Translations under genes and position numbers: made by a program
DNA from: Escherichia coli
GTDB lineage: Bacteria > Pseudomonadota > Gammaproteobacteria > Enterobacterales > Enterobacteriaceae
Direction: 5' to 3' (one strand)
Length of the DNA: 64,000 nt
NCBI RefSeq assembly: GCF_003790525.1
Contig: NZ_CP033635.1
The notes under the pieces: generated by a model
Seen by the model: only the letters and a program-made list of their open reading frames with translations
What the model was told of the DNA's origin: nothing
Database searches by the model: none
Part shown: positions 10,802-46,855 of the stretch, piece by piece
Layout of the letters: the number at the start of each line of letters is the position of its first letter
How positions within the stretch are numbered: the stretch's first letter is position 1

Positions 10802-12379
10802 ATGACGGAAAACATTCATAAGCATAGCATCCTCATTCTGGACTTCGGTTCCCAGTATACTCAACTGGTTGCGCGCCGCGTGCGTGAGCTGGGCGTTTAC
10901 TGCGAACTGTGGGCGTGGGATGTGACAGAAGCACAAATTCGTGACTTCAATCCAAGCGGCATTATTCTTTCCGGCGGCCCGGAAAGCACCACCGAAGAAA
11001 ACAGCCCGCGTGCGCCGCAGTATGTCTTTGAAGCAGGCGTACCGGTATTCGGCGTTTGCTATGGCATGCAGACCATGGCGATGCAGTTGGGTGGTCACGT
11101 TGAAGCCTCTAACGAACGTGAATTTGGCTACGCGCAGGTTGAAGTCGTAAACGACAGCGCACTAGTTCGCGGTATCGAAGATGCGCTGACCGCAGACGGT
11201 AAACCTCTGCTCGATGTCTGGATGAGCCACGGCGATAAAGTTACCGCTATCCCGTCCGACTTCGTCACCGTAGCCAGCACCGAAAGCTGCCCGTTTGCCA
11301 TTATGGCTAACGAAGAAAAACGCTTCTATGGCGTACAGTTCCACCCGGAAGTGACTCACACCCGCCAGGGTATGCGCATGCTGGAGCGTTTTGTGCGTGA
11401 TATCTGCCAGTGTGAAGCCCTGTGGACGCCAGCGAAAATTATCGACGATGCTGTAGCCCGTATCCGCGAGCAGGTAGGCGACGATAAAGTCATCCTCGGC
11501 CTCTCTGGTGGCGTGGATTCCTCCGTGACCGCAATGCTGCTGCACCGCGCTATCGGTAAAAATCTGACTTGCGTATTCGTCGATAACGGCCTGCTGCGTC
11601 TCAACGAAGCAGAGCAGGTTCTGGATATGTTTGGCGATCACTTTGGTCTGAACATTGTTCACGTTCCGGCAGAAGATCGCTTCCTGTCAGCGTTGGCCGG
11701 CGAAAACGATCCGGAAGCAAAACGTAAAATCATCGGGCGCGTTTTCGTTGAAGTATTCGATGAAGAAGCACTGAAACTGGAAGACGTGAAGTGGCTGGCG
11801 CAGGGCACTATCTACCCTGACGTTATTGAATCTGCCGCATCTGCAACCGGTAAAGCACACGTCATCAAATCTCACCACAACGTGGGCGGCCTGCCGAAAG
11901 AGATGAAGATGGGCCTGGTTGAACCGCTGAAAGAGCTGTTCAAAGACGAAGTGCGTAAGATTGGTCTGGAGCTGGGCCTGCCGTACGACATGCTGTACCG
12001 TCACCCGTTCCCGGGACCAGGCCTTGGCGTTCGTGTTCTGGGTGAAGTGAAGAAAGAGTATTGTGACCTGCTGCGCCGTGCTGACGCCATCTTCATTGAA
12101 GAACTGCGTAAAGCGGACCTGTACGACAAAGTCAGCCAGGCGTTCACCGTCTTCCTGCCGGTACGTTCCGTTGGCGTAATGGGCGATGGTCGTAAGTATG
12201 ACTGGGTTGTCTCTCTGCGTGCTGTCGAAACCATCGACTTTATGACCGCACACTGGGCGCATCTGCCGTACGATTTCCTCGGTCGCGTTTCCAACCGCAT
12301 TATCAATGAAGTGAACGGTATTTCCCGCGTGGTGTATGACATCAGCGGCAAGCCGCCAGCTACCATTGAGTGGGAATGA
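10802..12379 (+). CDS. guaA: GMP synthase (glutamine-hydrolysing)
   Basis: 525-aa translation [40 protein letters not shown]... ends IEWE; immediately downstream of guaB. Confidence 0.95.
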
Positions 12380-12571: not shown

Positions 12572-13822
12572 GTGCTTACCGATACAAAATTAAAGAACCT
12601 CAAGCCACAGGACAAACTGTACAAAGTTTCCGATCGTGACGGGCTGTATGTAGCTGTGCTTACGTCAGGTACGGTCTCGTTTCGCTATGACTACCGTATC
12701 AACGGTCGCCGCGAAACACTGGTAATCGGGCAGTATGGGCGTGACGGTATCAGCCTGGCAGAAGCGCGAGAAGAACTGATTGCTGCAAAGAAGCTGCTTA
12801 AAGCAGGCCAGTCGCCGGCTGCGGCTAAACGTGACGGTATCAAAAAGATTCGTGGTGCCGAGACGTTTGCGGTACATACCGACAGTTATATGAAACACGT
12901 CATCCTGGCTGAAAGTACCCGCGCAATGAAGCAGGCAGTGATCGACCGTGACATACTTCCTGTTCTTGGCAACAAAATGATGACTGAAATTACCACATCG
13001 ATGGTTCGTGATTTGTGTGACCGGATTGTCGAACGCGGTGGTCGGGCAACAGCAGTACAGGCCAGGGAGATCATTAGCAGCGTATACCGTCACGCCAATG
13101 ACCGTGGTCATGGTTTGTTTAATCCTGCGGCTGACATTAAACCTTCGTCTATCGCCATATTTAAACCACGAGAGCGAACACTGACACCAGAAGAAATTGG
13201 TCTGTTCTTCCGCACGCTGGATGCCATTGGTGCTATGGGCACTATGAAAATGGCTTTAAAGCTGGTGCTTATCACTATGGTTCGTAAAGGCGAATTCACC
13301 AATGCAACGTGGGACGAAATAGATTTTAAAAAATGGACATGGACAATTCCTTCAGACCGCATGAAGGGAAGCCGGGCGCACGTTATTTACCTGCCAAAAC
13401 AGGCACAGGATATATTGGTTGGGTTGCAGATGTGCGCTGGTGGAAGTGAATATCTGGTTCCTGGTCGTTACAATTTCCGGAAGCCATTATCTAATGCCGC
13501 ACTGAACTCTCTGATCGACAGAACGGTGAAAATAATAAATGAAGATGGTGAGCATATTCAGGGCTTCACCGTACACGATATGCGCCGTACAGCCAGTACG
13601 TTGTTGCATGAGGCTGGTTATCCTTCAGACTGGATTGAAAAGGCTCTGGCACATGAGCAGAAAGGTGTGCGCGCCGTATATAACAAAGCGGAATACGCCA
13701 GACAGCGCGCCTACATGTTGCAGCAGTGGGCCGATATGATTGATTCCTGGATTAACGGGGAGCATACGGATCTAATTCCGTTCTCCCCGTCGAAGTTTGA
13801 GAAGTGGATGGCGGGGGAATAA
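12572..13822 (+). CDS. int: tyrosine-type phage integrase (P4-like family)
   Basis: GTG start; N-terminus MLTDTKLKNLKPQDKLYKVSDRDGLYVAV and C-terminal catalytic region VHDMRRTASTLLHEAGY...AHEQKGVRAVY typical of tyrosine recombinases; adjacent to attL. Confidence 0.9.
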   Translation: MLTDTKLKNLKPQDKLYKVSDRDGLYVAVLTSGTVSFRYDYRINGRRETLVIGQYGRDGISLAEAREELIAAKKLLKAGQSPAAAKRDGIKKIRGAETFAVHTDSYMKHVILAESTRAMKQAVIDRDILPVLGNKMMTEITTSMVRDLCDRIVERGGRATAVQAREIISSVYRHANDRGHGLFNPAADIKPSSIAIFKPRERTLTPEEIGLFFRTLDAIGAMGTMKMALKLVLITMVRKGEFTNATWDEIDFKKWTWTIPSDRMKGSRAHVIYLPKQAQDILVGLQMCAGGSEYLVPGRYNFRKPLSNAALNSLIDRTVKIINEDGEHIQGFTVHDMRRTASTLLHEAGYPSDWIEKALAHEQKGVRAVYNKAEYARQRAYMLQQWADMIDSWINGEHTDLIPFSPSKFEKWMAGE

Positions 13823-17670: not shown

Positions 17671-18255
17671 TTATTGTTTGTTTTTTTCGTTCTGGTTGAT
17701 GACAAATTCAATGTAACTTTCGATCTTTGCTTTCTCGGTTTCGGGTAACAATGCGTAGCGCGAGCGATCATAGTTGATGGTCGCAGGGTCATGCGGATGA
17801 ATCAGTAGTTCATATCCGTGACGCCCGAATGCAGATGCAACATTCTCCAGGGTGGAAATGGAAACGCTGACCTCATTGTTTAACAGGCGGCTTATTGTCA
17901 CCTGGGCGACGCCGGATGCGCGGTGAAGTTTTCCCTGAGTTGAAAGGTCGCGGCTTTCACTCATCCAGCGTTCCAGGTTGTGAGCCGCCAGCTGACCTAT
18001 ATCACTCGGGCCGACAGGCTGAAAACCCTCCTGAGAAAGCGAGCGATCAATATCAAGCCAGTTACGGGGTTTATTGGCGGCAGCTTCAATTTTTCGCGCA
18101 ACCTGGTCGCCGATAACCTTCTTGCCAAGAGCCCAGCGGTTTACCAGATTTGCCTGAGTTCCAAGTTTTTCTGCCATCCGCGTCTGAACACCATTGAATT
18201 CACGGTCGATCAAGTCGTTGAGATTTTGCCTGCGGACGTCCTGGATACTTTTCAT
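17671..18255 (-). CDS. putative immunity repressor with two HTH regions, no S24 peptidase domain
   Basis: 194 aa; HTH-like segments TRMAEKLGTQANLVNRWALG and ASGVAQVTISRLLNNEVSVSISTLENVASAF; divergent from cro-like gene across an operator cluster. Confidence 0.6.
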   Translation of the reverse strand: MKSIQDVRRQNLNDLIDREFNGVQTRMAEKLGTQANLVNRWALGKKVIGDQVARKIEAAANKPRNWLDIDRSLSQEGFQPVGPSDIGQLAAHNLERWMSESRDLSTQGKLHRASGVAQVTISRLLNNEVSVSISTLENVASAFGRHGYELLIHPHDPATINYDRSRYALLPETEKAKIESYIEFVINQNEKNKQ

Positions 18256-25479: not shown

Positions 25480-26950
25480 CAGATACAGCGTTATCTCCTG
25501 AAGAGCAGTTGATCGAGGATATTGCAGGGTTCACTCACGATCCGCTTGGCTATGCCCTCTATGCGTTCCCGTGGGGGAAGAGGGTACTGAACTGGCACAT
25601 GCCACCGGCCCACGTCAGTGGCAGGCTGATGCGTTCCGAGAGATACGTGATCACCTGCAGAATCCAGAGACGCGCTATCAGCCGCTTATGCTGGCACGCG
25701 CTTCTGGTCACGGTATTGGTAAATCCGCATTCATCTCAATGCTGATCAACTGGGGCATGTCCACTTGCGAGGATTGTAAGGTCGTGGTGACCGCCAACAC
25801 CGACAACCAGCTACGAACTAAGACCTGGCCGGAAATTATCAAGTGGTCGAACCTTGCTATCACGAAAGACTGGTTTACCTGTACCGCTACCGCGATGTAC
25901 AGCAATGATCCTGGGCACGACAAGCGGTGGCGAGCTGACGCAATCCCTTGGTCTGAGCACAACACTGAGGCATTCGCCGGACTACACAACGAGCGTAAAC
26001 GCATCATCGTGGTATTTGATGAAGCGTCGAACATTGCGGATCTGGTGTGGGAAGTTGCCGAGGGTGCGCTAACGGACGAAGACACTGAGATTATCTGGGT
26101 GGCGTTCGGAAACCCTACACGTAACACCGGACGTTTCCGCGAATGTTTCCGCAAATATAAACACCGCTGGAAAACTGCGCAGATTGACAGCCGAACGGTG
26201 GAAGGCACTAACAAACAGCAGTTGCAGAAATGGGTTGATGACTACGGGGAAGACAGCGACTTCGTTAAAATCCGTGTGCGCGGCATATTCCCTGATGCAT
26301 CTGAATTGCAGTTTATCCCTACCGGTCTTACTGATGAGGCAATGAAACGGGTGGTGACCGCTGCGCAGGTGGCGCATGCTCCGGTGATAATCGGTGTTGA
26401 CCCGGCATATTCAGGCGTTGATGACGCGGTGATATACCTGCGGCAGGGGCTACACAGTAAGGTGCTGTGGACTGGCAACAAGACTACCGACGATCTGATT
26501 ATGGCGAAGCGTATCGCTGACTTTGAAGACCAGTATCAGGCTGACGCGGTGTTCATCGACTTCGGTTACGGAACCGGTTTGAAGTCAATCGGTGATGGCT
26601 GGGGACGTACATGGCAACTTGTTCCGTTCGGTGGCGCGTCTACTGACCCGCAGATGCTCAACAAGCGTGGGGAGATGTTCAACTCATGCAAGACATGGCT
26701 GAGGCTCGGCGGCATGCTGGATGACCAGGAAACTGCAGACGACCTGTCGGCGGCAGAGTACAAAGTTCGTGTGGACGGTAAAATCGTTATCGAACCGAAG
26801 GAAGATATCAAAGAGCGGCTTGGGCGTTCGCCTGGTAAAGGCGATGCGCTACTGCTGACGTTTGCTTTCCCGGTGTCAAAGCGCCTGCGACTTCCCGGGC
26901 AGCAGAACCAGCAAGGCAAGGCGCTTACCGAGTACGATCCATATGCTTAG
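25476..26950 (+). CDS. terminase large subunit; frame changes (-1) in a G5 run at 25573-25577, so either frameshifted or it starts at GTG 25571
   Basis: Walker A ASGHGIGKS in frame of 25571-26950; upstream 32 codons (GTG 25476, overlapping terS stop, SD AGGA) are in the other frame. Confidence 0.7.
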
Positions 26951-27765
26951 TCTTTATTTTTATCCTCGAAACCTGATAATCCAGATAGAACACCAAAGTT
27001 ATTAAAAACGTTTGGCTTACCAGATTTTAATCCGGATAAGTTGTGTTGCTCCAAAAAGTTACTAATTGTTTGGCCGTTGCCAAGTGCAAGGCTTTTTATT
27101 TGAGATTTTTCAGGGTATTTGAGTTTGTATTCGTCGAAATCATTTTGGAGGGTCTTATATGCCTCATTCATTCTTCCAAGAGTTTCCGATATCTCTTTTA
27201 ATGAATGATTTAGAGCTGCTAACTGAGCACTGGCGGATCTCAATTCGTCATCTTTAGCTTTCAACTCGGCAGTCAATTCACCCATACTATTCTTTGATCG
27301 AATAATCTCTTCTTTCATCTCTTGGATGTCTTTTTCCGCGCCAGTCTTAACTTTGTCGTATGTAACATCTTTTTTAGCCAATAACCTCTGCAGTCTTGTT
27401 TCACGCTGGATTTTTCTTGCCTTCAGGTGATTTTCGATTGAGTCATTATTATCAAGAGGCTTTGCTTGCCATACGTTAATGATATTGTTTACCCATGGTA
27501 ATAGGCAGCAGATAGCAATTACAGATAAGCATGGATAAAACATAACAGTTTTCCATGTGCTGTTATCTGAGATATATGAAATTTTATCTATTATGTTTGA
27601 TTTGCTAAAAAATAGATAAAGAATTGATTTCCAGTTGAAGGCGCACCAGGACATAACAAAAGCACCAAGCACAGGGTTTTTGGCTCGATTCACGGCAGTA
27701 TTGGCAGTAGATAAAAACAGCTCTTTGAACGATTCAAACATGCTAATTACCTTGAAGTTTTTCAT
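26947..27765 (-). CDS. membrane-anchored coiled-coil protein, antisense to the packaging/structural genes (candidate accessory or exclusion protein)
   Basis: Start MKNFKVISMFESFKE; two hydrophobic segments then long coiled-coil; AT-rich; own upstream palindromic motif. Confidence 0.5.
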   Translation of the reverse strand: MKNFKVISMFESFKELFLSTANTAVNRAKNPVLGAFVMSWCAFNWKSILYLFFSKSNIIDKISYISDNSTWKTVMFYPCLSVIAICCLLPWVNNIINVWQAKPLDNNDSIENHLKARKIQRETRLQRLLAKKDVTYDKVKTGAEKDIQEMKEEIIRSKNSMGELTAELKAKDDELRSASAQLAALNHSLKEISETLGRMNEAYKTLQNDFDEYKLKYPEKSQIKSLALGNGQTISNFLEQHNLSGLKSGKPNVFNNFGVLSGLSGFEDKNKD

Positions 27766-27769
27766 GATT

Positions 27770-27784
27770 ATACCTTTAAGGTAA
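27770..27784. promoter_or_regulatory. TTACC-N5-GGTAA-like site (ATACC TTTAA GGTAA) immediately upstream of minus-strand membrane protein gene
   Basis: Core palindrome TACCTTTAAGGTA. Confidence 0.45.
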
Positions 27785-27901
27785 TTTGCGGTCATCAAGC
27801 AAAAAAATGCCCGGCGAACCGGGCGAACTGGAAGCAATGAGTTATGCCTTCCGTGGCTGTACGGGTTTACAGCATGAAGTCATCGCAATGGCGTCCTGCT
27901 G

Positions 27902-27944
27902 TAAAAAGGGCGGTGATAGTCCTTCAAGGGAAACCATCACCGCC
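27902..27944 (-). terminator. rho-independent terminator downstream of tRNA-Arg
   Basis: ggcggtgat...atcaccgcc hairpin followed by T6 on minus strand. Confidence 0.55.
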
Positions 27945-27987
27945 AAGCCCCTGGAACTTCTGGCATCACGGTCCTTAGGCGTGATTC

Positions 27988-28064
27988 TGGCGCGGCATGC
28001 AGGATTCGAACCTGCGACCAACCGCTTAGAAGGCGGTTGCTCTGTCCAACTGAGCTAATGCCAC
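27988..28064 (-). tRNA. tRNA-Arg (anticodon UCU), phage-encoded
   Basis: 77-nt cloverleaf folded by hand: acceptor GUGGCAU/AUGCCGC, D-stem GCUC/GAGC, anticodon stem ACCGC/GCGGU with loop CUUCUAA, T-arm GCAGG-UUCGAAU-CCUGC, encoded CCA. Confidence 0.85.
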
Positions 28065-28386
28065 AACGCTGAGAGCACTTAGCCTGTTAAGGCACCACAC
28101 TTTGTCGCGGCTCCATAAATGCTCTCATCGTTGCACCCTCGTCTCTTCCGAGGTGTCACACCGAATCGCCGGGATGGTGAATCCCCGTGCGCGGAATAAA
28201 ACCGCTCGACTTGCACATTCCGGCTACCTGGTTCGTTTGCCCGAGCAAGGGAGGGTGCCCCTTAAACGTATCCAGACCGCTATCGGCGCATGTGCCATAC
28301 ACCGTACTGCTCAAAATAAAAGCTCACCCCACCTGTTCAATTTAACGACAAGCCAGTCAGGTTAATAACCGGAATGAACTCTTTGC

Positions 28387-28401
28387 TTACCTGAAAGGTA
28401 A
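28387..28401. promoter_or_regulatory. TTACC-N5-GGTAA operator-like site (perfect) upstream of portal operon
   Basis: TTACC TGAAA GGTAA. Confidence 0.5.
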
Positions 28402-28480
28402 TAATTAGTGCAGTATCTACGATAAATAAATCACATGTGGTTAAATTGGTAATAATTTAATTGCGTACGGAGTCATTGAT

Positions 28481-33582: not shown

Positions 33583-34187
33583 TGGCCTCTGTAGTAGAGA
33601 TCTGCAATCGTGCGCTGTCCAATATTGGCAATAGCCGCAGCATTAACAGCCTGACGGAAGCCAGCAAGGAAGCGGGGGAATGTTCGCTGCACTTTGAGGC
33701 CTGCCGTGATGCTGTGCTTTCTGATTTTGACTGGAACTTTGCTACCAAACGCGTGGCGCTTGCAGATACGAGCAATCCACCGCCTGACTGGGAATATGCG
33801 TACCAGTACCCGTCAGATTGTCTGCGCATTACTGAAATTATGCTTCCTGGTGTACGCAATCCAACAGCAGCAATGCGCGTTCAGTACGAAGTTGGTGCAG
33901 ACACCAACGGAACAGGAAAGTTGATCTACACAGACCAGCCTCAGGCATGGCTCAAGTATGTCTCTCTCGTTACAGATGTGAACATGTTTGATGCCATTTT
34001 TATGGAGGCGTTGGCCTGGCGTCTTGCGGCAGCTATTAACATGGCGCTGACTGGGAATGCAGACCTCGGTACGTTTGCCCTCAATATGTACAATCGCGTG
34101 ATTCTTAGTGCTGGCTCGCATAGCCAGAATGAATCACAGGAACCACAGCCACCGGTTGATGAGTTTACCATTGCGAGGTTGTCCTGA
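33582..34187 (+). CDS. hypothetical virion protein (possible head-tail adaptor)
   Basis: 201 aa, coupled. Confidence 0.35.
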   Translation: MASVVEICNRALSNIGNSRSINSLTEASKEAGECSLHFEACRDAVLSDFDWNFATKRVALADTSNPPPDWEYAYQYPSDCLRITEIMLPGVRNPTAAMRVQYEVGADTNGTGKLIYTDQPQAWLKYVSLVTDVNMFDAIFMEALAWRLAAAINMALTGNADLGTFALNMYNRVILSAGSHSQNESQEPQPPVDEFTIARLS

Positions 34188-36658
34188 TGGCTATCAGTTG
34201 GATCCAGCCCAGCTTTGCCGGTGGTGAGATTGGACCGTCGTTGTACGGGCGTATTGACATGGCGAAGTACCAGGTAGCATTGCGCAAGTGCGATAACTTT
34301 ATCGTGCGGCAGTATGGCGGCGTTGAGAATCGACCTGGTACGCGTTTTGTCGGTGCCGCCAAATACCCAAATCGGAAATGCCGCCTGATCCCGTTCCAAT
34401 TCTCGACGGTTCAGACTTATGCTCTGGAGTTCGGACACCAGTACATGCGCGTTATCAAAGATGGTGCGTTGGTGCTGAACAGCAGCAATGTTATTTATGA
34501 AATTGCCACGCCATATACTGAAGCCGATCTGTTCCGAATTAAATTCACGCAAAGCGCCGACGTGCTTACGCTGGTTCACCCGGCATACCCGCCGAAAGAG
34601 CTGCGCCGCTATGCGCATGACAACTGGCAACTGGTTGATGTGGTAACGAAGAACGGGCCATTTGAAGATATCAATATTGATGAGTCAGTGACGGTTTATG
34701 CCAGCGCCAGCACCGGGACAATTACGTTAACGGCAAGCGCCTCTATTTTTGGCGCGGAGCAGGTAGGCAAATTGTTCTATCTGGAACAGCCTGCAGTGGA
34801 TTCTGTGCCGGTATGGGAAACCAGTAAGAGTACGTCGATTGGCGATATTCGCCGTGCAGACAGTAACTACTATCGCGCCGTTACAGCAGGCAAAACAGGC
34901 ACTTTGCGCCCTTCGCATACAGAAGGCACATCATGGGATGGCTGGGGCGGATCCGGTGATGATGATACTGGCATTGAGTGGGAGTATCTGCACAGTGGTT
35001 TTGGCATTGCCCGTATAACTGCTGTAAATGGCACTACTGCAACTGCTGAGGTGATTTCCTATATCCCTTCGCAGGTCGTTGGCGAGGATAATGCCAGCTA
35101 TAAATGGGCTAAATATGCCTGGAACAGTGTTAATGGTTATCCTGGCACTGTTGTTTATTATCAACAACGTCTTTACTTCGCCGCATCGACTGCGTTCCCT
35201 CAGACCATCTGGGCCAGCCGTACCGGGGATTATAAGGATTTTGGCAAAAGCAATCCTACGCAGGATGACGACAGAATTATCTACACCTATGCCGGGCGTC
35301 AGGTTAATGAGATCCGTCACCTGATTGATGTTGGTTCTCTGGTGGCGCTGACTTCCGGAGGTGAGTACGTCATCACCGGCGACCAGAACAAAGTGTTAAC
35401 CCCATCATCATTTGCATTCAGCTCTCAGGGATCAAATGGCTCGAGTAATGTCCCACCAATTGCCGTAGCGAATATTGCTCTGTTCGTCCAGGAGAAAGGC
35501 AGTGTTGTCCGTGATCTGGCCTACTCATTCGATGTTGACGGCTATCAGGGGAACGACCTGACCATCCTTGCCAATCATCTTTTTCAGAAGCACAGCATTG
35601 TTGACTGGTGCTTCTCGATTGTCCCTTACTCCAGCGCCTTCTGCATCCGTGATGACGGTAAATTACTGGTGATGACCTATTTGCGTGATCAACAGGTTTT
35701 TGCATGGGCACCACAGTCCAGTACCGGAAAATATGAAAGCACATGCAGTATCAGCGAAGGCAATGAAGATGCGGTGTATTTCGTCGTTAACCGAACCGTT
35801 AACGGGCAAACAGTGAGATACATCGAGAGACTGTCCAGCCGTTTATTTACCAGCGATGAAGATGCTTTCTTTGTTGATTCTGGCCTTAGCTATGATGGAA
35901 GAAATACGTCTGACAGAACGATGACCATCACTGGTGGTTCTGGTGAATGGGATTACCGCGCGGAATATACAATCAGTGTTTCTGGTGGTGCGTACTTCAC
36001 CAGTAGTGATGTCGGTGCGCAACTACAGTTCCCTTATACCGGAACTGATCCTGATACTGGCGATGAAGTGTCAAAAGAATTACGTTGCGACATTATTTCT
36101 GTAACCAGCAATACCGCTGTAGTGGTTCGTGCTAACAGGAACGTCCCGCCATCCCTCAGGAATGTGGCCACCACGAACTGGCAGATGGCGCGCCGGACAT
36201 TTGGAGGCCTGTCTCATCTTGAAGGCCAGACCGTAAACATTCTTTCTGATGCGAATGTTGAGCCACAGAAAGTTGTTTCCGGAGGTGCCGTCACACTGGA
36301 ATCACCGGGGGCTGTAGTGCACATCGGCCTGCCAATAACTGCTGAATTCGAAACACTGGATATCAACATTAACGGACAGGAAACGCTGCTGGACAAAAAA
36401 CAGGTGATCCCCTCCGTTACTCTGGTTGTGAATGCCAGCCGCGGCATCTGGGCGACTACGCCTGGCGGTAAATGGTACGAACATCCACAGCGTGAATTCG
36501 AGTTCTACGATGATCCTGTTGATGATGCTACCGGAAAAGTAGAAGTGAAACTGGACAGTAACTGGGGCAAAAACGGACGTGTAAAAATCCGTCAGCTTGA
36601 CCCGTTGCCGCTGTCTGTTCTTGCCGTTATTCCTCGCCTTACTGTTGGGGGATTCTGA
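34187..36658 (+). CDS. large tail tube/nozzle-type structural protein
   Basis: 823 aa in tail region of a podovirus-like module. Confidence 0.4.
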   Translation: MAISWIQPSFAGGEIGPSLYGRIDMAKYQVALRKCDNFIVRQYGGVENRPGTRFVGAAKYPNRKCRLIPFQFSTVQTYALEFGHQYMRVIKDGALVLNSSNVIYEIATPYTEADLFRIKFTQSADVLTLVHPAYPPKELRRYAHDNWQLVDVVTKNGPFEDINIDESVTVYASASTGTITLTASASIFGAEQVGKLFYLEQPAVDSVPVWETSKSTSIGDIRRADSNYYRAVTAGKTGTLRPSHTEGTSWDGWGGSGDDDTGIEWEYLHSGFGIARITAVNGTTATAEVISYIPSQVVGEDNASYKWAKYAWNSVNGYPGTVVYYQQRLYFAASTAFPQTIWASRTGDYKDFGKSNPTQDDDRIIYTYAGRQVNEIRHLIDVGSLVALTSGGEYVITGDQNKVLTPSSFAFSSQGSNGSSNVPPIAVANIALFVQEKGSVVRDLAYSFDVDGYQGNDLTILANHLFQKHSIVDWCFSIVPYSSAFCIRDDGKLLVMTYLRDQQVFAWAPQSSTGKYESTCSISEGNEDAVYFVVNRTVNGQTVRYIERLSSRLFTSDEDAFFVDSGLSYDGRNTSDRTMTITGGSGEWDYRAEYTISVSGGAYFTSSDVGAQLQFPYTGTDPDTGDEVSKELRCDIISVTSNTAVVVRANRNVPPSLRNVATTNWQMARRTFGGLSHLEGQTVNILSDANVEPQKVVSGGAVTLESPGAVVHIGLPITAEFETLDININGQETLLDKKQVIPSVTLVVNASRGIWATTPGGKWYEHPQREFEFYDDPVDDATGKVEVKLDSNWGKNGRVKIRQLDPLPLSVLAVIPRLTVGGF

Positions 36659-37122
36659 TGATCGATGTTCGAATTATTCCCGCTACCGAAGAGCATCTTC
36701 AGATGATTTTGCCGGATGTTCGTCAGGCTGATATTGACGAACTGTATGCGGTATCGCTGATGACTACCGAAGATGCGCTGCGCGTTGGTCTGCGCACTGC
36801 GACTATGGCCTGGTCAGGGTTCGCGAACGGAGAACTGGTAACCATGTTTGGTGTATCTCCGGCGTCAATGATCGGTGGCAATGGTACACCCTGGCTGGTC
36901 GGGACCAGCCGTATTGAAAAATATCAGAAGACATTTCTGCGCCACTGCCGCCCTGTATTGCAGCAGATGCTGGCAGTTTATCCGCGCCTGGAAAACTACG
37001 TCGACGAGCGAAACTATGTTGCCAAAGCATGGCTGCACTGGCTTGGATTCAGGCTTGAAGAGGCCGCGCCTTATGGTGCTCTTGGTCTTAATTTCCACAG
37101 ATTTCACATGGAGAGAAAATAA
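36658..37122 (+). CDS. hypothetical virion protein
   Basis: 154 aa, coupled. Confidence 0.3.
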   Translation: MIDVRIIPATEEHLQMILPDVRQADIDELYAVSLMTTEDALRVGLRTATMAWSGFANGELVTMFGVSPASMIGGNGTPWLVGTSRIEKYQKTFLRHCRPVLQQMLAVYPRLENYVDERNYVAKAWLHWLGFRLEEAAPYGALGLNFHRFHMERK

Positions 37123-37667
37123 TGTGCGATCCGGTTATTGCTGGTGGCGCAATGCTCGCCATGAGTGGCATTCAGGCATACACCCAGTACCAACAGGGAA
37201 AGTATGCCTCGAAGGTTGCAGAAGCGAACGCAGATATAGCCACTGCTCAGGCAAATGATGCAATAAACATAGGTAACGCTGAAGCTGAGCAACGGCGCAG
37301 AGAGACCCGACAGCGGCTTGGTACACAGGCGGCGACAATGGGGGCTACCGGCGCTGATTTATCTACAGGTAACGCGCTGGATATATTTGGCGACACTGCT
37401 CAGTTTGGCGCTCTTGATGCGCTGACGACGGTGAATAACGCGCAACGCGAGGCTTACGGTTATCAGATGCAGGCTGCTAACTATAAAGCAGAAGCCAGTT
37501 CAGCCCGTAAACAGGGGAATGTGGGAGCAGCAACAACATTGCTCACTGCGCCTCTGAAGGCATACGGTGCGTACCAGATGTTTGGTGGGACGTGGAGTCC
37601 GTTTACTCAAAGCACTCCTGCGCCAATCGGGGCAGCAGCAGGAACCAGATTACCCGGAGGATTATAA
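37122..37667 (+). CDS. hypothetical virion protein (Ala/Gln-rich)
   Basis: 181 aa; TAATG overlap with next gene. Confidence 0.3.
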   Translation: MCDPVIAGGAMLAMSGIQAYTQYQQGKYASKVAEANADIATAQANDAINIGNAEAEQRRRETRQRLGTQAATMGATGADLSTGNALDIFGDTAQFGALDALTTVNNAQREAYGYQMQAANYKAEASSARKQGNVGAATTLLTAPLKAYGAYQMFGGTWSPFTQSTPAPIGAAAGTRLPGGL

Positions 37668-40180
37668 TGCCAGTCGTACCAACAGTATCCGGACGTCAGG
37701 TTGAGAGCCGTGGAGTTCAGTCAGCAGGCTTGCAGACGTTTTCTCAGCCAGGTATTGGTGATGCTTTTGTTCTGGCAGGGGAAGAGGCAATTGATGTTTT
37801 TGGGCAGGCAAAACAGCGTGCCAATATTGCCTTGGCTCAGGAGGCATCTCTTAACCTCAGTCAGATAAGCAGTGATTTGCTGAATAATCCTGAAACAGGA
37901 TTGCTTAACCTGAAAGGGAAAAATGCTATTGGAAAAGGCCATGAGTATACGCAGCAGTTTGATGCTCAGGTCGAACAATTGGCTATGTCGCTGCCGGATG
38001 AACAGGCTCGTAATGCTTTCATGCAGCAGGCGCAGCAGCAGCGCATTCAGTTCACTACGCAGGCCGGGCGGCACGAGATAGGGCAAATAAATGCCTACGA
38101 AGAAGGCCAGTTTCAGGCGACGCTGCTGAACAATGGTAAAAATGCCGCAGCATTGTATGGCGACAACGCCGCATACGTATTGGCTAATAAGCAAACTTTC
38201 CAGCAAATTGAGGATTACGGCATTGCGCATGGCTGGAGCGACGAGCAAATCCAGGCCAAGAAAATCGAGTTTAAAGAGAAGGTTGCTGATGCCGCATTGT
38301 CCCAGTGGTCGGCAAACAATGCGACCGCATTCATCCAAAGTAATGGCGAGTTAAGTGATACTGCTGCTGGAGCTCGCCGTGCTGTAGCAGATAGTGACTC
38401 TTCCGAGCGTGCCCGTGGCATACGCAACAATAACCCAGGAAATCTCGAATACAGCAAAACTAATCCGTGGGTAGGCCAGACCGGTGATGATGGTCGATTT
38501 GCTAAATTCGAAACACCTGAACACGGGATTCGTGCATTAGGGCGGAACCTGATGTCGTATCAGAGGCAGGGTATTGATACCGTCAGCGAGATAATTAATC
38601 GCTGGGCACCGCCTACTGATAAAAATGACACTATGTCGTATATCAAAGCAGTGTGCGAACAACTTGGCGTTTCTGCTGATGAGCCTCTCGATGCATCTAA
38701 TCCTGATACCCTGAAGGCGCTTTGTGCAGCCATTATCCATCATGAGAACGGTAGCCAGCCATACAGTGATCAGCAGTTAACTGCTGGTGTCAGTGCAGCA
38801 CTTGGTTTATCAACAATTCCAACCAACATCAAACGCTATACCGGTAATGCAGCATTCGATGCGGCATCTCCTGAGGCGCAGGCAAGTTTTATGCGACAGG
38901 CGGATCAACTGCGTCGGCAGCAGCAGGCTGAATATAAAACGATGATTGACAGCCAGGTTCGCGATGCGACAGCTGCGTATATGCGTGGCGTTGAATTTCC
39001 TAACCCACCTGGTGAGGCTGATTTTATTGCAGCTTATGGAGTCAGAGAAGGAAACCTGCGATATACCGAGTTCAGAAATGCGCAAATCGCCGGACAGTAT
39101 ATAGGCTCTTTCCGCAACATGCCGACAAGCAGCATTACATCATATGTTGAGCAATTACGCCCGGATACTGGTGAGACAGGGGAGGGTTATGCGGCACGAG
39201 CCGCTCTTTATGACAACGTTGTGTCGGCTGCAAGTCAGGTGATAAAGCAGCGACAGGCTGATCCTGTACAGTTCTCTCTTGCCGCCGGACAGGCAAAGCC
39301 TATCGACATGAGCAATAAGGATAACTTTGGACAGAGCGTTGCCTTGCGTGCCGCTCAGGTCAGTGACCTTGCTAAGTCATATGGCACTCCACTGACGTTC
39401 TTTTCCAAAGACGAGGCCAATCAGATCGGTGTTTTCTTTCGTGATGCGCCCGTTTCCCAACAGGCAGCATATCTCGATACCATCAGGCAGAGCACTGGTG
39501 GTGGGCAGGTGTATATGTCAGCACTACAGCAGATCAGTGCCAACGCTCCATCTGCTGCCGTTGCCGGGATACTGATGGATAAGCCAGGTGGTATTTTGGC
39601 AGAAAAAAACTGGTTTAATCCGGATGTTTCCGTGTCTCCTGAAACCGCTGCGCAGACAATTCTTGCTGGCGCGGCGGCTCGTAAAGGTACTGATGACGCG
39701 AAAGGTATTCCGATGCCTAAAGATGCTGATCTTCGCCTTGAGTTTTCTGACATGGTGAAGGATGCATTTGCTGGTGATGCTCAGGGGGCATCAATGGCAT
39801 ACGAGATCGCAAAGGACTATTACGCTGGTGTGATGGCGAAAAAAGGCGTGGTATCAGGCGAAATTGACAATGATATCTGGAAACAGGCTGTTAACGTAGC
39901 TACAGGTGGCGTGCATGACTATAACGGAATGGGGAATGTTCTTTTGCCGTGGGGAATGTCTGCAGAGCAATTCGATAAGCAGGTTAATCAGGCTTGGAAT
40001 GAACAAGTTGTTGGCACAGGGATAAAAACACCGCCTGGTCAGTATGGTTTGCAAAGTTACGGCGATAGTCAGTACCTGGTGAAACTTGGTACTGGTTATC
40101 TGCTAAAAGATGATGGTTCTCCCGTTGTTCTTGATCTGACACAGAAGCGTCAGAGATTCTCCGGAGATATTCCGAAATGA
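37667..40180 (+). CDS. internal virion/ejection protein
   Basis: Start MPVVPTVSGRQ with SD GGAGGATTATA; 837 aa. Confidence 0.4.
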   Translation: MPVVPTVSGRQVESRGVQSAGLQTFSQPGIGDAFVLAGEEAIDVFGQAKQRANIALAQEASLNLSQISSDLLNNPETGLLNLKGKNAIGKGHEYTQQFDAQVEQLAMSLPDEQARNAFMQQAQQQRIQFTTQAGRHEIGQINAYEEGQFQATLLNNGKNAAALYGDNAAYVLANKQTFQQIEDYGIAHGWSDEQIQAKKIEFKEKVADAALSQWSANNATAFIQSNGELSDTAAGARRAVADSDSSERARGIRNNNPGNLEYSKTNPWVGQTGDDGRFAKFETPEHGIRALGRNLMSYQRQGIDTVSEIINRWAPPTDKNDTMSYIKAVCEQLGVSADEPLDASNPDTLKALCAAIIHHENGSQPYSDQQLTAGVSAALGLSTIPTNIKRYTGNAAFDAASPEAQASFMRQADQLRRQQQAEYKTMIDSQVRDATAAYMRGVEFPNPPGEADFIAAYGVREGNLRYTEFRNAQIAGQYIGSFRNMPTSSITSYVEQLRPDTGETGEGYAARAALYDNVVSAASQVIKQRQADPVQFSLAAGQAKPIDMSNKDNFGQSVALRAAQVSDLAKSYGTPLTFFSKDEANQIGVFFRDAPVSQQAAYLDTIRQSTGGGQVYMSALQQISANAPSAAVAGILMDKPGGILAEKNWFNPDVSVSPETAAQTILAGAAARKGTDDAKGIPMPKDADLRLEFSDMVKDAFAGDAQGASMAYEIAKDYYAGVMAKKGVVSGEIDNDIWKQAVNVATGGVHDYNGMGNVLLPWGMSAEQFDKQVNQAWNEQVVGTGIKTPPGQYGLQSYGDSQYLVKLGTGYLLKDDGSPVVLDLTQKRQRFSGDIPK

Positions 40181-41979
40181 GTTACTTTGGCCTTAATCCA
40201 GTAAACCAGAATCAGCAGCTTGACGAAGCAGCATCAAATCCAGTTGGCTTTAACAGCGATGTTGGTTTTTTCGACAATGCTGTAGGAGCGGCATTGTCTG
40301 GTTTGTACTCCGGGCTGGTGGCAAAGCCTGATCAGTTGCTCTGGGCAGGGATGGATAAAATCGTATCCCCGATTGCTCAGTTTGTTAACGAAAACACCTC
40401 GCTCAATGACACTTCAGTTTCATACATTGCCGAGCAGAGAAAACTAGCAGAGCAGCAGGTTAAGCGGCTGACGCCTGATGCCGCGACAACCGGAACCGCC
40501 GGGCAGGTTCTTTATGGGTTGTTCGATATGGGCGGGCAGGCTGTTATCGGTACAACGCTCGGTGGTCCGGTCGGAGGTGCTGCGGCGGTAACTTCGCTAC
40601 AGGGTTTTTCTGAGTTTGAACGGCTGACAGCACAGGGTGTTGATTTCAGGACGGCGCAGGAAGCGGGATTAGTGCAGGGTATTACTGCTGGTGCCGGAAC
40701 ACTGATCCCTATGAGCCTCGGGTTACGTGCTGGTGGTGCGCTGGCGGAAGGTGTGGCGGCTCAGCTTGCGCGGACGGGTGAAAGTTCAGTGCGACGCGCC
40801 GCAGCAACAGCAGTACGTGCAACGCCAGATATTGCCTATGCCGCAGGTACAAATATTGCGTTCGGTATGGCACAGCGTGGGCTTACTGCAAAAACGCTTC
40901 GTGATGGTGGCTATAGCGAAATGGCTAACCAGTATGATGTGTTGGATCGACAGGCAATTGCTATTGATGCTGTTCTTGGGGTGGCGTTTGGTGGTGTCGG
41001 CAGATTTATTAACTCTCGCGGCGAGTCTACAAGCGCACCAAATTTTTCACCAGTTGATATCGATGCTGCACTGGCGGCGAATGCCGCTCATCATGCTGAA
41101 ATTGATATTGCTCCCGGTGTGCCGATCAACGTGCTTTCGCGTAATTCGCACATTCAGGCTCTGCGAAAAGCCATGTCTGATGTTAGCCAGGGGAGACCTG
41201 TAGACGTTGCCAGCATTGTTGAGTCTGCATCTTTCAGTGAAATTCCTGGGCGCAAGAGTCTGCTTTCTCAGGCAGTTAATGAGGCTCTGTCATCTGTAGA
41301 TGATGGAGTAACGGCGCGCGCTATAGAAAATCGGTTGCTTGAAGAACAGGCCGCGCAGCTTTTGCCGCGTGGCGATAGACAGGTTTACCAGTCTGAAATC
41401 GCTAATAGCCAACGAATTATTGAAAATCTCACTGAACAGCGCGCACAAATTCTTGCAGAAGAGCCAACCGGTAGCGGTAAAGCTTTGTCTCGTGCTCGAT
41501 CAGATAAACAGGCCAGACTTCGCGATATTGATCAACGAATCCGGCAGGCACAAGAACGCCTGGAGTTTTCCCGTAACGCGTTGGCTCCGCACGAGCCTGG
41601 CGGTCAGTTTTTTGAAGCTCGAGCAGAACTGGCACGACGACAGCAGGCAGAAAGTGAACTTAATGCTCAGGCTGTTTCATTCTATAAAACAGCAGAGGTC
41701 AGGACGCCAGACGAAGTAGCTCCTTTTGAGCCCGGTAAGATATTGCAACAGACAGAACAAAAAATGATGGCAGATCCGGCAGGAGATATTGATCTGCGTA
41801 TAGCTGAAGACTCGCTGCTTGAATCTCCGGACATGATAATCACCGTGCTGGATGATGATGGTAATCCACAATCGCGCAGTGCGCGTGAAGTACTGGATGA
41901 AGCGAACAGGGAAAGTGAGCAGGCAATACAGGATTCCAGCCTGTTTGATGTTGCTGTGGCGTGTTTCTTGAGAGGTTAA
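40177..41979 (+). CDS. internal virion/ejection protein
   Basis: 600 aa, Ala/Gly-rich N-terminal half. Confidence 0.35.
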   Translation: MSYFGLNPVNQNQQLDEAASNPVGFNSDVGFFDNAVGAALSGLYSGLVAKPDQLLWAGMDKIVSPIAQFVNENTSLNDTSVSYIAEQRKLAEQQVKRLTPDAATTGTAGQVLYGLFDMGGQAVIGTTLGGPVGGAAAVTSLQGFSEFERLTAQGVDFRTAQEAGLVQGITAGAGTLIPMSLGLRAGGALAEGVAAQLARTGESSVRRAAATAVRATPDIAYAAGTNIAFGMAQRGLTAKTLRDGGYSEMANQYDVLDRQAIAIDAVLGVAFGGVGRFINSRGESTSAPNFSPVDIDAALAANAAHHAEIDIAPGVPINVLSRNSHIQALRKAMSDVSQGRPVDVASIVESASFSEIPGRKSLLSQAVNEALSSVDDGVTARAIENRLLEEQAAQLLPRGDRQVYQSEIANSQRIIENLTEQRAQILAEEPTGSGKALSRARSDKQARLRDIDQRIRQAQERLEFSRNALAPHEPGGQFFEARAELARRQQAESELNAQAVSFYKTAEVRTPDEVAPFEPGKILQQTEQKMMADPAGDIDLRIAEDSLLESPDMIITVLDDDGNPQSRSAREVLDEANRESEQAIQDSSLFDVAVACFLRG

Positions 41980-41984
41980 ATTAA

Positions 41985-44459
41985 ATGAGACAGGAATGTA
42001 TACAAGCGGTCCAGCAGGCGGCGCAGCGCACGTTAACGGCGCGAGAAATACAGAACATTGAAGACCGCATTTATCGAAATATGCGCTCCATTGCTCGTGA
42101 TGACCCGATGTCGTGGCGACAACTTTCCGAATCAGAACGGTTGTATCGTGCAGCACAATTGGCATCTGAAGAATTACAGCGAGAAGCGGCATTAAAGAAA
42201 CGTCGTGTGGCCCTCACTATAGCCGCACGTCAGAGATTGGATAAATTTATCAATAGCTATCAAGGGGCTGATGGGAAACTTGGCGCTCTTAACCGTACTA
42301 TTGCTTTTAATGCAGACGGTAAATCGAATTTCCTCTCTGTTGAATCCAGAACAAAAGCCACCCGTGATTATGCATTGAGTCAATTGCAGGAGGCATTCGA
42401 AGCAGTTGATCCTCGCTTTTTTGGTCTGTTTGAAGATGAAGCGGGCGTACGTGACCTGGTATATGAAATGCGGGGGCAAAATACTGGCAATGCTAAAGCA
42501 AGAAAAGGTGCTAAGGCGTGGAGAGAAGTTACAGAGCTGCTGCGCCGCCGGTTTAATGATGCTGGTGGGGACATTGGCTATCTCGAAAACTGGGGGATCC
42601 CTCAACATCATTCTATGGAAAAGGTTGGGGCGGTATCAAAGGATAAGTGGGTTAGCGATGTTATAGGTAAGCTGGATCGCAAATATTATACCCGAGCCGA
42701 TGGACAACTGATGAACGATGCCGAGTTGTCTGAATTTCTTGGAGAGGCTTATAACACGATCGCTACTGGTGGGCTGAATAAGCTTACTGATACCGGAATG
42801 CGAATTTCCGGCGCACGTGCTAACCGTGGTAATGCATCACGACAGATACATTTCAAAGATGCAGATTCCTATCTGCAATATCAGCAACTTTATGGCGATC
42901 GCTCTCTATGGGAAATCATGGTCGGTCACCTGGAAGGTATCAGTAAAGATATTGCGCTGGTGGAAACATATGGCCCAAACCCCGATCATGTTTTCCGCTC
43001 CCTTCTTGATCAGGTTAAGGCAGAAACGGCAACAGCTAACCCGAGTAAAACCGGTAGCGTCGAGCGTCTGGCGAACAAAACAGAGAACTTGTACAACTTT
43101 ATTTCCGGAAAAACACAGCCTGTAGCGAATCCGCACATCGCGCGATGGTCTGACAATATCCGCAACTGGCTGGTTGCCAGCAGACTCGGATCCGCGTTGC
43201 TGTCATCGTTCTCTGATCTTGGAACCATGTATCTGTCTGCGAAGGTTACCAACCTTCCAATGAACCAGTTATTTCGCAACCAGCTTGAAGCTATGGACCC
43301 AACGAACCGTACAGAACTTGCGCGGGCGCGCCGCGCTGGCCTGGCGATGGAATCTCTACTTGGCAGCGTTAACCGCTGGGCGATGGATAATATGGGGCCG
43401 TCTGTGTCTCGTTGGGCGGCAACGGCGGTAATGCGTGCCAGTGGGCTTACAGCATGGTCAGATGCGCACAAGCGCGCCTATGGCGTAACCATGATGGGAA
43501 GCCTGGGAGAAGTAGTGTCACGGACACCAGACCTTCGTAGCCTCGATGACTCTGATTTTCGTATCCTGAAAAGCAAAGGGATTACTGACACAGACTGGAG
43601 CGTATGGAAGCTGGCGCAACAGGAGGACTGGGGGAACGGTAATAATACGATGCTGACACCGGAAAGCATTATGCGTATCCCTGATTCAGCAGTTAAACAT
43701 CTTGGTGAGCCTGAACGCGTGAAATTTGAGGCAATGCGTAAACTGCTCGGTGCCGTAACTGAAGAAGTTGATATGGCTGTTATTACACCGGGCGCACGTG
43801 AACAGATGTTCGTAGGGTCTGGTCTTCAGCGTGGAACATGGAAAGGTGAATTAACGAGAAGTGTTTTCCTGTTTAAATCGTTCCCTATCTCGGTAGTTAT
43901 GCGTCACTGGCATAGAGCTATGGGGATGCCGTCTGCTGGTGGGCGTGCGGCATATATAGCAACGTTTTTAGCAAGCACAACCATGCTTGGTGCTCTTTCC
44001 ATGCAGATTACTGATCTTATTAATGGGAGAAATCCAAAAGAAATGACCGGTGACAACATGGTTAAATTCTGGATAAATGCATTTTTAAAAGGTGGTGGGG
44101 CAGGGTTGTATGGTGATTTTCTTTTCTCTGACCACACCAGGTACGGGAGCGGCGCACTAGCGTCGATGCTTGGCCCGGTAGCTGGTCTGGTTGATGACGT
44201 AGTGAAGATTGCTCAGGGCATACCGTTAAATGCTGTGGAAGGGAAGAATGAGCAGACTGGTGGTGATCTGGTTAAGCTTGGGAAAGGTTTGATGCCTGGT
44301 GCGAATCTCTGGTACTTGAAGGCGGCTCTCGATCACATGATCTTTAATCAGATGCAGGAGTATTTTTCACCAGGCTATTTGCGTAAAATGGAGCAACGTT
44401 CGAAGAAAGAGTTTAACCAGACATACTGGTGGCGACCTCAGGATGTCACTCCGCAATAA
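41985..44459 (+). CDS. large internal virion/ejection protein
   Basis: 824 aa, last gene of core structural block. Confidence 0.4.
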   Translation: MRQECIQAVQQAAQRTLTAREIQNIEDRIYRNMRSIARDDPMSWRQLSESERLYRAAQLASEELQREAALKKRRVALTIAARQRLDKFINSYQGADGKLGALNRTIAFNADGKSNFLSVESRTKATRDYALSQLQEAFEAVDPRFFGLFEDEAGVRDLVYEMRGQNTGNAKARKGAKAWREVTELLRRRFNDAGGDIGYLENWGIPQHHSMEKVGAVSKDKWVSDVIGKLDRKYYTRADGQLMNDAELSEFLGEAYNTIATGGLNKLTDTGMRISGARANRGNASRQIHFKDADSYLQYQQLYGDRSLWEIMVGHLEGISKDIALVETYGPNPDHVFRSLLDQVKAETATANPSKTGSVERLANKTENLYNFISGKTQPVANPHIARWSDNIRNWLVASRLGSALLSSFSDLGTMYLSAKVTNLPMNQLFRNQLEAMDPTNRTELARARRAGLAMESLLGSVNRWAMDNMGPSVSRWAATAVMRASGLTAWSDAHKRAYGVTMMGSLGEVVSRTPDLRSLDDSDFRILKSKGITDTDWSVWKLAQQEDWGNGNNTMLTPESIMRIPDSAVKHLGEPERVKFEAMRKLLGAVTEEVDMAVITPGAREQMFVGSGLQRGTWKGELTRSVFLFKSFPISVVMRHWHRAMGMPSAGGRAAYIATFLASTTMLGALSMQITDLINGRNPKEMTGDNMVKFWINAFLKGGGAGLYGDFLFSDHTRYGSGALASMLGPVAGLVDDVVKIAQGIPLNAVEGKNEQTGGDLVKLGKGLMPGANLWYLKAALDHMIFNQMQEYFSPGYLRKMEQRSKKEFNQTYWWRPQDVTPQ

Positions 44460-44468
44460 GGAACAACA

Positions 44469-45815: not shown

Positions 45816-45830
45816 TTACCTTTAAGGTAA
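45816..45830. promoter_or_regulatory. TTACC-N5-GGTAA operator-like site (perfect) upstream of two-gene cassette
   Basis: TTACC TTTAA GGTAA. Confidence 0.5.
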
Positions 45831-46592: not shown

Positions 46593-46855
46593 GATCACCT
46601 TTGTAGTTAGGTTAATCACCACTACCGACGCCAATCGGTTGGTGGTGAACTGTGCAGGGTTGGCGTAACCGGCTACAAAGGACCCGGCGCACCTTTCGGT
46701 GCCCCCACACAGCCCACCATAGAATAGGTGCGCTTTACACATAAAAAAACCGCTTATGCGGCATATGTGCCTCTGTAGTAACCCGGGACGCCAATCCCGG
46801 CACTGGATTTTGCCAGTGCCCGATTACTATGGCACAAGAGGAGTGCGATGTAAAT

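Follow-up and report, generated by a model that had tools for sequence, protein, structure and literature searches.

The 64,000-nt stretch of Escherichia coli DNA analysed here (NCBI RefSeq assembly GCF_003790525.1, contig NZ_CP033635.1; hereafter the window) carries a prophage in which a minus-strand gene for tRNA-Arg(UCU) is preceded by a leader of about 320 bp (28065-28386), and this leader almost certainly encodes a real, strand-specific and conserved structured RNA, named here RNA-A. An earlier note, made from the sequence alone, had described the leader as lacking a convincing open reading frame (ORF) and had suggested that it could hold a promoter or a structured RNA. Both points have been borne out: 28065-28386 contains no ORF longer than 87 amino acids (aa) on either strand, no frame is kept across relatives, and the leader yields a pseudoknotted RNA of about 245 nt, accompanied in relatives by a predicted TTGACA-17-TACCTT promoter. 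Positions 28420-27903 (minus strand) are best read as an early transcription unit, noncoding and complete in itself, within a phiV10/epsilon15-like (Uetakevirus) prophage; in this unit, promoter and operator are followed by RNA-A, a tRNA or tRNA-like RNA, a trailer hairpin, and a terminator.

The full RNA-A of the window (28308-28065, minus strand, as are all its parts) comprises helices P1 to P6, one pseudoknot, and a near-invariant 19-nt joining strand. Its core (28135-28308) scores 137.1 bits (E=7e-41) with a covariance model, R1, built over 158 positions from an alignment (A3) of 54 non-redundant cores, and the window row shows all RNA-A helices over model positions 1-158. Pair counts place P1 (28304-28284), P2 (28280-28273 with 28230-28223, enclosing a variable insert), P4 (28185-28171), P5 (28153-28137), and a pseudoknot between CACC in the P4 loop (28179-28176) and a downstream GGUG (28162-28159), while the alignment adds P3, a variable hairpin (28205-28191). 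The joining strand conserved across copies, GGUAGCCGGAAUGUGCAAG as RNA and GGTAGCCGGAATGTGCAAG as DNA, lies at 28228-28210. Downstream of the core, a 3′ domain (28064-28134) consists of the long helix P6, in which CAACGAUGAGAGCAUU (28133-28118) pairs with AGUGCUCUCAGCGUUG (28079-28064) to close a second variable insert, and whose last G is nucleotide 1 of the tRNA. The invariant unpaired segments of RNA-A are CCGGAAUGUGCAAGYC, UUCACCA, GGCGAU, GGUGUGAC, and GAAGAGA.

The structure P1, P2, P4, P5 plus pseudoknot was assessed by counting pairs in the 54 aligned cores, where 97.1% of cells form standard pairs, against 27-48% when the partners are slid by 1-3 columns. Changes on both sides occur in 14 of the 29 pairs, and none of 500 shuffles reached the observed values. 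In P1, for example, pair 10:36 is A-U in 30 sequences and G-C in 21, in P2 pair 50:108 is C-G in 39 and U-A in 14, and covariation extends to P4 (three of four pairs) and P5 (all five). The G-U pairs 47:111, 48:110 and 11:21 are kept in 54, 53 and 52 of the 54 sequences, respectively; on the opposite strand they would become mismatches, so that the RNA strand must be that of the tRNA. Since bulges shift the register of a gapless column count (71% paired versus 34-58% when slid), P6 was judged by duplex energies, whose mean is -22.4 kcal/mol for its own strands, -8.4 for shuffled strands, and -16.1 for strands swapped between divergent classes, the own partner being better than 95% of swaps; the minimum free energy (MFE) fold also contains P6. 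Folding of the single sequence is unremarkable on both strands (z-scores of -1.18 and -1.66), and the structure is therefore visible through comparative data only. A long-range pairing of P1 with the 19-mer, proposed by RNAalifold from a wide alignment, was set aside and retained only as an alternative, as P1 covariation backs the local hairpin. The invariant GCACAU atop P1 could pair with an equally invariant complement, AUGUGC, within the joining strand, and the GUUG at the end of P6 has two possible CAAC partners. Elsewhere, R1 gives 130-132 bits with two Shiga toxin (Stx) phages and 32.8 bits with a truncated remnant in epsilon15; a weak partial match in the window at 60485-60559 (minus strand; 9.3 bits, E=0.13) is probably noise.

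RNA-A is found well beyond the prophages that most resemble that of the window. Blastn at sensitive settings, with 28065-28400 as query against phage records, recovered the central 170-240 nt or so at 70-83% identity in unrelated phages, one copy per phage: lambdoid and Stx phages (cdtI, mEp460, mEp390, Ayreon, 2H10, and Stx2c, Stx2k and Stx2a phages), P1-type phages (P1, P7, D6, SJ46, RCS47), the N4-like Klebsiella phage SopranoGao, Enterobacter phages, and a phage whose record assigns it to Stenotrophomonas. At least 120 IMG/VR contigs contain the 19-mer without any change. As this first set had been selected on the 19-mer itself, a rescan was made with an independent anchor, P1 plus the next joining strand, and among the 104 unique copies so obtained the 19-mer is exact in 89, has one or two changes in eight, and is truncated in seven. 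The core is present at a coverage of at least 80% in 1812 of 5426 complete E. coli genomes, at 2467 places (553 of them on plasmids), and no annotated feature lies under it among the RefSeq matches listed for these genomes. With one genome taken per species, the exact 19-mer appears in 24 contigs, all from Enterobacterales (including Citrobacter, Klebsiella, Kosakonia, Escherichia, Erwinia and Phytobacter) except two short contigs of metagenome-assembled genomes (MAGs), which are probably misbinned. RNA-A is absent from K-12 both at CPS-53 and at argU. A host origin of the leader was accordingly discarded, argU having no such leader and CPS-53 lacking it even though its yfdP-yfdT genes resemble the downstream genes of many copies.

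Across these phages, RNA-A appears to sit behind repressor-controlled early promoters, be the context that of a podophage, a lambdoid phage or P1, the promoters being predicted from sequence. In cdtI, mEp460 and Stx phages it shares the strand of a cI-type repressor gene and separates this gene from those of the early-left region, and in P1 it belongs to the C1-controlled ban operon, on the operon strand, between trnI and ban, that is, 3′ of trnI. Among 127 loci compared, a cI-like gene is immediately upstream on the same strand in at least 55, and 31 have the Uetakevirus arrangement. The order in cI contexts is cI stop codon, cI terminator, operator repeats with a predicted sigma70-type promoter, and RNA-A, with helix P1 starting about 0-125 nt from the predicted +1. 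The genes alongside vary with context: of nine neighbour proteins scanned, eight belong to PHROG families with no assigned function and the ninth is a ParB-like partition protein; not one of them carries an antiterminator annotation, and the downstream genes yielded no recognisable N-like protein. A conserved protein partner encoded beside RNA-A was hence rejected, the neighbours differing between contexts. The P1 ban operon is an early operon rich in RNA genes, holding a dicF-like region, tRNA-Asn, tRNA-Thr, tciABC, tRNA-Ile2, RNA-A and then ban (L004 in our locus numbering, 4800-4901 and 3493-3612), as well as a weak STnc100-like match of 33 bits, below threshold.

In the window, the control element is a perfect palindrome, TTACCTGAAAGGTAA (28387-28401), at the end of the leader, which the earlier note had called operator-like. 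The name proved apt, the palindrome belonging to a family, TTACC-N5-GGTAA, with 18 sites in the window at up to two mismatches against 1.4 expected, a number attained by none of 100 shuffles. Sites (e.g., 17537, 17599, 18311, 18696, 20660, 27770, 28387 and 45816) cluster around a repressor-like ORF at 17671-18255, and a 'repressor' site is annotated at the equivalent place in the epsilon15 record; together, the size of the family, this clustering and the epsilon15 annotation identify the palindrome as the operator of the prophage repressor. Copies also precede the gp3/portal operon and the accessory ORF downstream of the cassette, where one (27770-27784) overlaps the -10 element of the promoter, and others lie near C4/isrK at 46.6-46.8 kb, which suggests that a single repressor directly controls many prophage promoters. 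Related Uetakevirus contigs have TTGACA-17-TACCTT on the minus strand with the operator over the -10 and +1, and alignment with O157 typing phage 9 and epsilon15 reveals a remnant of this leftward early promoter at 28402-28420 (minus strand). Only in the window copy is the -35 TTGACA missing, lost through an 11-bp deletion (junction 28412/28411); phiV10-like phages and epsilon15 retain it. The 5′ spacer between operator and structured RNA (28309-28386, minus strand), as read from the sequence, holds a weak promoter-like pair, TTGAAC (28340-28335) and TATTTT (28318-28313), with eight of 12 consensus matches and below the scan threshold; that this pair serves as a promoter is an inference only.

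RNA-A is also coupled to tRNAs or to RNAs that resemble them. All tRNAs within 600 nt of RNA-A are on its strand (32 of the 127 loci); tRNA-Arg(tct) follows RNA-A at spacings of +157 to +469, and in P1-like contigs tRNA-Ile2(cat) immediately precedes it. The 122 loci long enough to judge divide into 29 with tRNA-Arg, 58 with a tRNA-like RNA, and 35 with neither, and a hairpin with a U-tract follows within 260 nt in all 29 tRNA loci and in 51 of the 58 tRNA-like loci (80 of 87 together). Where tRNA-Arg is absent, the slot after the junction ...GCGUU/GUGG is usually filled, between the same flanks, by the tRNA-like RNA (e.g., L001 3003-2873, minus strand; L013; L027; L042; L067). This has an acceptor-like closing helix, GUUGUGGUG/CACCACAAC, a D-arm-like hairpin whose stems covary, a variable insert (34-144 nt), and then a T-arm-like hairpin, which in L027 and L042 is canonical (GGTTCGAATCC or GGTTCGATTCC); some copies end in ACCA. 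ARAGORN and Rfam make no call on the tRNA-like RNAs. The trailer hairpin and terminator of the window tRNA also follow them, the hairpin being seen 3′ of those of L013, L017, L042 and others. A C4-like antisense role for the variable insert found no targets within the loci and was dropped: same-strand complementarity of at least 10 nt was not consistent among 16 loci, a search that covered the insert and not RNA-A itself. The P4 loop of RNA-A, AUUCACCA (28182-28175), has 8 nt of complementarity to UGGUGAAU at the 5′ end of the tRNA-like RNA, and none to tRNA-Arg; this complementarity and that of GCACAU with AUGUGC could represent alternative or intermolecular pairings.

The interpretation that we favour, with slightly less than even confidence, is that RNA-A is a large RNA freed by tRNA processing that acts in trans on a conserved host component. 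In relatives, where the repressor operator overlaps the promoter, the unit would be transcribed upon derepression or infection. RNase P would then cut at the 5′ end of the tRNA, exactly where P6 ends, to release an RNA-A with both ends buried in helices (P1 at the 5′ and P6 at the 3′ end), so that the tRNA, or the tRNA-like RNA in the same slot, would double as the signal for 3′-end maturation of RNA-A besides any service as a rare-codon tRNA. Freed RNA-A would act in trans through its invariant unpaired segments on the host component. These segments stay the same whatever the phage type or immunity group, which favours a target in the host over one specific to a phage. Moreover, two terminators close the window unit, and the ORF that follows is served by a separate TATAAT promoter under operator control, which argues against an obligatory role in cis there. 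We further consider possible, though doubtful, the broader proposal that RNA-A represents a novel class of regulatory phage RNA acting directly on a conserved host machine, through antitermination unrelated to put or, made as the very first transcript after derepression, as a decoy or inhibitor of a host RNA-binding or tRNA-targeting factor, with the adjoining tRNA or tRNA-like module as a maturing and stabilising 'tRNA scaffold'.

Several points weigh against a trans-acting RNA released in this way. Processing and expression of every copy are deduced from layout, and the copy in the window may be poorly expressed, given the deletion of the -35 element of its operator-controlled promoter. The 35 of 122 loci with neither tRNA nor tRNA-like RNA downstream include P1, and RNase P therefore cannot set the 3′ end everywhere. 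In addition, lambdoid phages place the cassette and its terminator between pL and every early-left gene, with no sigma70-like promoter after the cassette terminator in mEp460, an arrangement that would fit a cis-acting role at least as well. The main rival, which we regard as rather unlikely, builds on this, casting RNA-A as a protein-independent processive antiterminator or attenuator in cis, similar to put of phage HK022, in which the nascent RNA would bind the transcribing RNA polymerase and permit read-through of the cassette terminator, and of those beyond it, into the early genes. RNA-A is indeed always in sense orientation, just 3′ of an early promoter and 5′ of terminators; in mEp460 the cassette terminator separates pL from the first early-left gene; the first proteins downstream lack any function in PHROG and any annotation as N-like antiterminators; two terminators stand in tandem in the window; and constancy across phage types would suit a conserved host target such as RNA polymerase. 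Homology to put is, however, contradicted by R1, whose best score anywhere in the HK022 genome, 4 bits (E=2.5), does not rise above noise. Each phage has a single copy of RNA-A, whereas both early operons of HK022 contain put sites. A processing site in the form of a tRNA or tRNA-like RNA lies between RNA-A and the terminator in 87 of the 122 loci, where cleavage would cut the tether of RNA to polymerase that put is said, in 2001 work by Sen, King and Weisberg, to need. Finally, neither the window nor phage SopranoGao has anything essential downstream of the cassette, and the ORF that comes next in the window has a promoter of its own.

Still less probable is a new class of riboswitch-like, ligand-sensing element or self-cleaving ribozyme at the head of the early transcript. 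A pseudoknot and long invariant unpaired segments are typical of aptamers and ribozymes, the complementarity of GCACAU to AUGUGC permits two alternative folds, and the GUUG of P6 has its two partners, but the riboswitch and ribozyme families of Rfam give no match, even when E values as high as 10 are admitted, and an expression platform is not conserved, as the core is followed by tRNA, tRNA-like RNA or other sequence, with a terminator within 150 nt of it in only eight of 106 contexts by a strict hairpin scan. That RNA-A might be a mere long 5′ leader serving the maturation, stability or promoter spacing of tRNA-Arg is suggested by its direct abutment on the tRNA, whose nucleotide 1 ends P6, and by the recurrence of tRNA-Arg downstream in 29 loci; this view, which we hold to be very improbable, is largely refuted by distribution, with 93 of 122 loci lacking the tRNA, RNA-A lying 3′ of a tRNA in P1, no such leader at host argU, and conservation and covariation far above what a spacer needs. 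Scarcely credible is the view that the region codes for a protein or functions as a DNA site (an operator, an origin or a site of recombination) and not as an RNA. Public records do place hypothetical coding sequences (CDSs) on the opposite strand across RNA-A (mEp460_037; phiSTEC1575 genes 15 and 16), and the antisense strand is open in some frame in 42 of the 54 cores. Distances between conserved blocks, however, fall in all three residue classes modulo 3 (12/22/20 and 16/26/12), which means that no reading frame is preserved, core lengths modulo 3 are spread as 22/18/14, and only one strand accommodates the compensatory changes and the near-invariant G-U pairs. As the block spacing is not kept in frame, the hypothetical CDSs are probably misannotations. 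The annotations over or beside the RNA are at L001 2934-3302 (plus strand; mEp460_037) and L128 2438-2815 (minus strand; phiSTEC1575Stx2k_15 and _16), and the epsilon15 record has an 'RNaseIII' site across or beside it (L005 2533-2632, plus strand).

The Rfam scan of the leader that the earlier note had suggested matched no family, in contrast to the new model R1: with Rfam 15, nothing overlaps 28065-28386 at the gathering score or at E up to 10, and the homologues of this region at six related loci yield no match at E up to 0.5. RNA-A would seem to be a structured phage RNA, new to Rfam 15, that is co-transcribed and, as we infer from its surroundings, processed with tRNAs. Searches of the literature by literal sequence and for put-like or structured phage RNAs, prophage small RNAs (sRNAs), Uetakevirus tRNAs and the P1 transcriptome returned no account of it, within a scope that left out most subscription journals, so a prior description is possible.

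Known systems nevertheless offer partial parallels. The put RNAs are about 70 nt long with two stem-loops and need no phage protein. RNA-A resembles HK022 putL and putR as a phage RNA placed just 3′ of repressor-controlled early promoters and 5′ of terminators, and would likewise need no phage protein and be confined to enterobacterial hosts; it differs in having no sequence or structure match in HK022, a core of about 160-245 nt with a pseudoknot, non-lambdoid contexts as well, and, usually, a tRNA-type processing site on its 3′ side. The C4 RNA of P1, the CI RNA of P4 and isrK (RF01695, RF01394) are cut from longer early transcripts, as proposed for RNA-A, the maturation of C4 and CI being due to RNase P, and a C4/isrK pair is present in the same prophage. 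The C4/CI family (RF01695, clan CL00128) has no match on the leader at E up to 10, and C4-type RNAs are immunity-specific antisense RNAs of about 80 nt with targets in the same transcript, whereas RNA-A is constant across immunity types. Phage T4 makes two structured RNAs of unknown function, 'species 1 and 2' (rnaC and rnaD), that are co-transcribed with tRNAs and released by tRNA-processing enzymes. They may be compared with RNA-A; T4, however, is virulent, its RNAs are not tied to a repressor-controlled promoter, and they are not known to be related to RNA-A in sequence. In eukaryotes, RNase P cleaves MALAT1-mascRNA at a downstream tRNA-like structure, a layout akin to that of RNA-A, with a large structured RNA followed by a tRNA or tRNA-like module that possibly defines its 3′ end, though RNA-A has a bacterial setting and its cleavage is surmised by analogy. 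GOLLD and ROOL, too, are large and elaborately folded RNAs whose function is unknown, and they frequently occur in prophages and close to tRNA genes; unlike RNA-A, they measure about 580-800 nt, come mostly from Firmicutes and other phyla, and are in Rfam, with no match here.

Lambda-type nut sites are not a general feature either: a strict boxA lies 3′ of the core in one of 94 unique contexts and in the window there is none, while GCUCUUUAA-like strings were seen by eye in about three further contexts. A nut/boxA reading of the GCUCU strand of P6 was discarded, given that the strand is one side of a covarying helix and strict boxA is rare. An enterobacterial repetitive intergenic consensus (ERIC)-like repeat, suggested by the strings GGGGAUUCAC and GGGGUGAGC, does not fit the orientation of the motifs, and the Pas prophage sRNAs belong to the late region and are unrelated to RNA-A. 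Should RNA-A act on RNA polymerase, a host RNA-processing enzyme or a defence factor, it would be an RNA player at the earliest step of temperate phages, among them P1 and lambdoid phages that were thought well mapped; if a host machine is indeed engaged, P1 and Stx-converting phages carry an unrecognised RNA effector. The arrangement also suggests that some phage tRNA genes may double as processing signals for neighbouring RNAs.

The tRNA part of the locus is already known, being annotated in phiV10-like phages, and is the less interesting half. The earlier note had taken it for a canonical 77-nt tRNA-Arg(UCU) with encoded CCA and its own terminator, and all of this is confirmed: the gene (27988-28064, minus strand) is the sole ARAGORN tRNA call in the window, as tRNA-Arg(tct), scores 69.4 bits with the Rfam tRNA model (RF00005) against a gathering score of 29, ends in GCCA, so that CCA is encoded, and is followed by a 14-pair hairpin with a T-run. 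K-12 argU, which has no RNA-A upstream, is identical to it at 65 of 77 positions and shares the anticodon and the encoded CCA; the D-stem, anticodon loop and T-arm are the same, one change lies in the D-loop, and the differences in the acceptor and anticodon stems are all compensatory or U-G, for which reason the phage tRNA looks functional as judged from this comparison. It also retains A20 and the anticodon bases C35 and U36, which are identity elements of tRNA-Arg. Support of late-gene translation, which had been suggested for this tRNA, fared less well. Of the Arg codons of the prophage, 14-16% are AGA or AGG, compared with 3.9% in the host DNA to its left, on the guaA side, and a supply for rare codons is plausible, but the share is 13.6% in the late, structural region and 15.6% in the early region, and a role specific to late genes is not supported. 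Within the structural region, AGA and AGG are almost nil in head genes, and tail and injection genes (34187-44882) hold nearly all of the AGA. One tRNA has been reported in Uetakevirus ZX5 (PMC9782041).

The minus-strand module sits between the gene for the large terminase (25571-26950, plus strand) and the gp3/portal operon (28481 onward, plus strand). The placement of the tRNA inside the structural region in the earlier note is accordingly misleading, as the module lies on the opposite strand and has the appearance of an early, repressor-controlled accessory cassette. The Uetakevirus phages phiV10, TL-2011b, O157 typing phages 9 and 10, and further members of the genus are 96-98% identical over the region, as are hundreds of E. 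coli prophages, the E. coli matches spanning 712 nt versus 701 nt in the window; the only annotations there in phiV10-like phage and prophage records are 'tRNA-Arg' or hypothetical proteins. Downstream of the tRNA come the conserved trailer hairpin AUCACG-CCUAAGGAC-CGUGAU (27965-27985), which follows the tRNA or tRNA-like RNA in related cassettes, the intrinsic terminator that closes the noncoding cassette (27903-27944), and a second terminator-like hairpin, GCCCGGUUCGCCGGGC with U7, found by terminator scan (27802-27824, the scan itself marking 27824-27809), all on the minus strand. The accessory ORF that follows (26947-27795, minus strand) matches PHROG 4780, of unknown function, and its likeliest start is the ATG at 27766. 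Its own promoter is ATGACC-17-TATAAT, overlapped by the operator copy at 27770-27784, and four of its 11 Arg codons are AGA. In phiV10-like relatives a 123-aa PHROG 322 protein replaces it, and that family also provides the first gene 3′ of the cassette in some lambdoid contigs.

The prophage begins just past a guaA-sized ORF (10802-12379), with an integrase-sized ORF at 12572-13822, a start that agrees with the attB published for Uetakevirus ZX5, which is located at the 3′ end of guaA (PMC9782041). High use of AGA right of 47.3 kb suggests that the prophage extends further in that direction. Its C4 antisense RNA (46638-46724; 79.5 bits) adjoins isrK (74.7 bits) at 46638-46819 (minus strand), beside an ORF at 45903-46742 and operator copies at 45816, 46856 and 47236, and the whole forms an immunity region of antirepressor type belonging to this prophage. 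In mEp460, isrK and C4 are likewise paired, within the rightward operon (L001 5351-5539).

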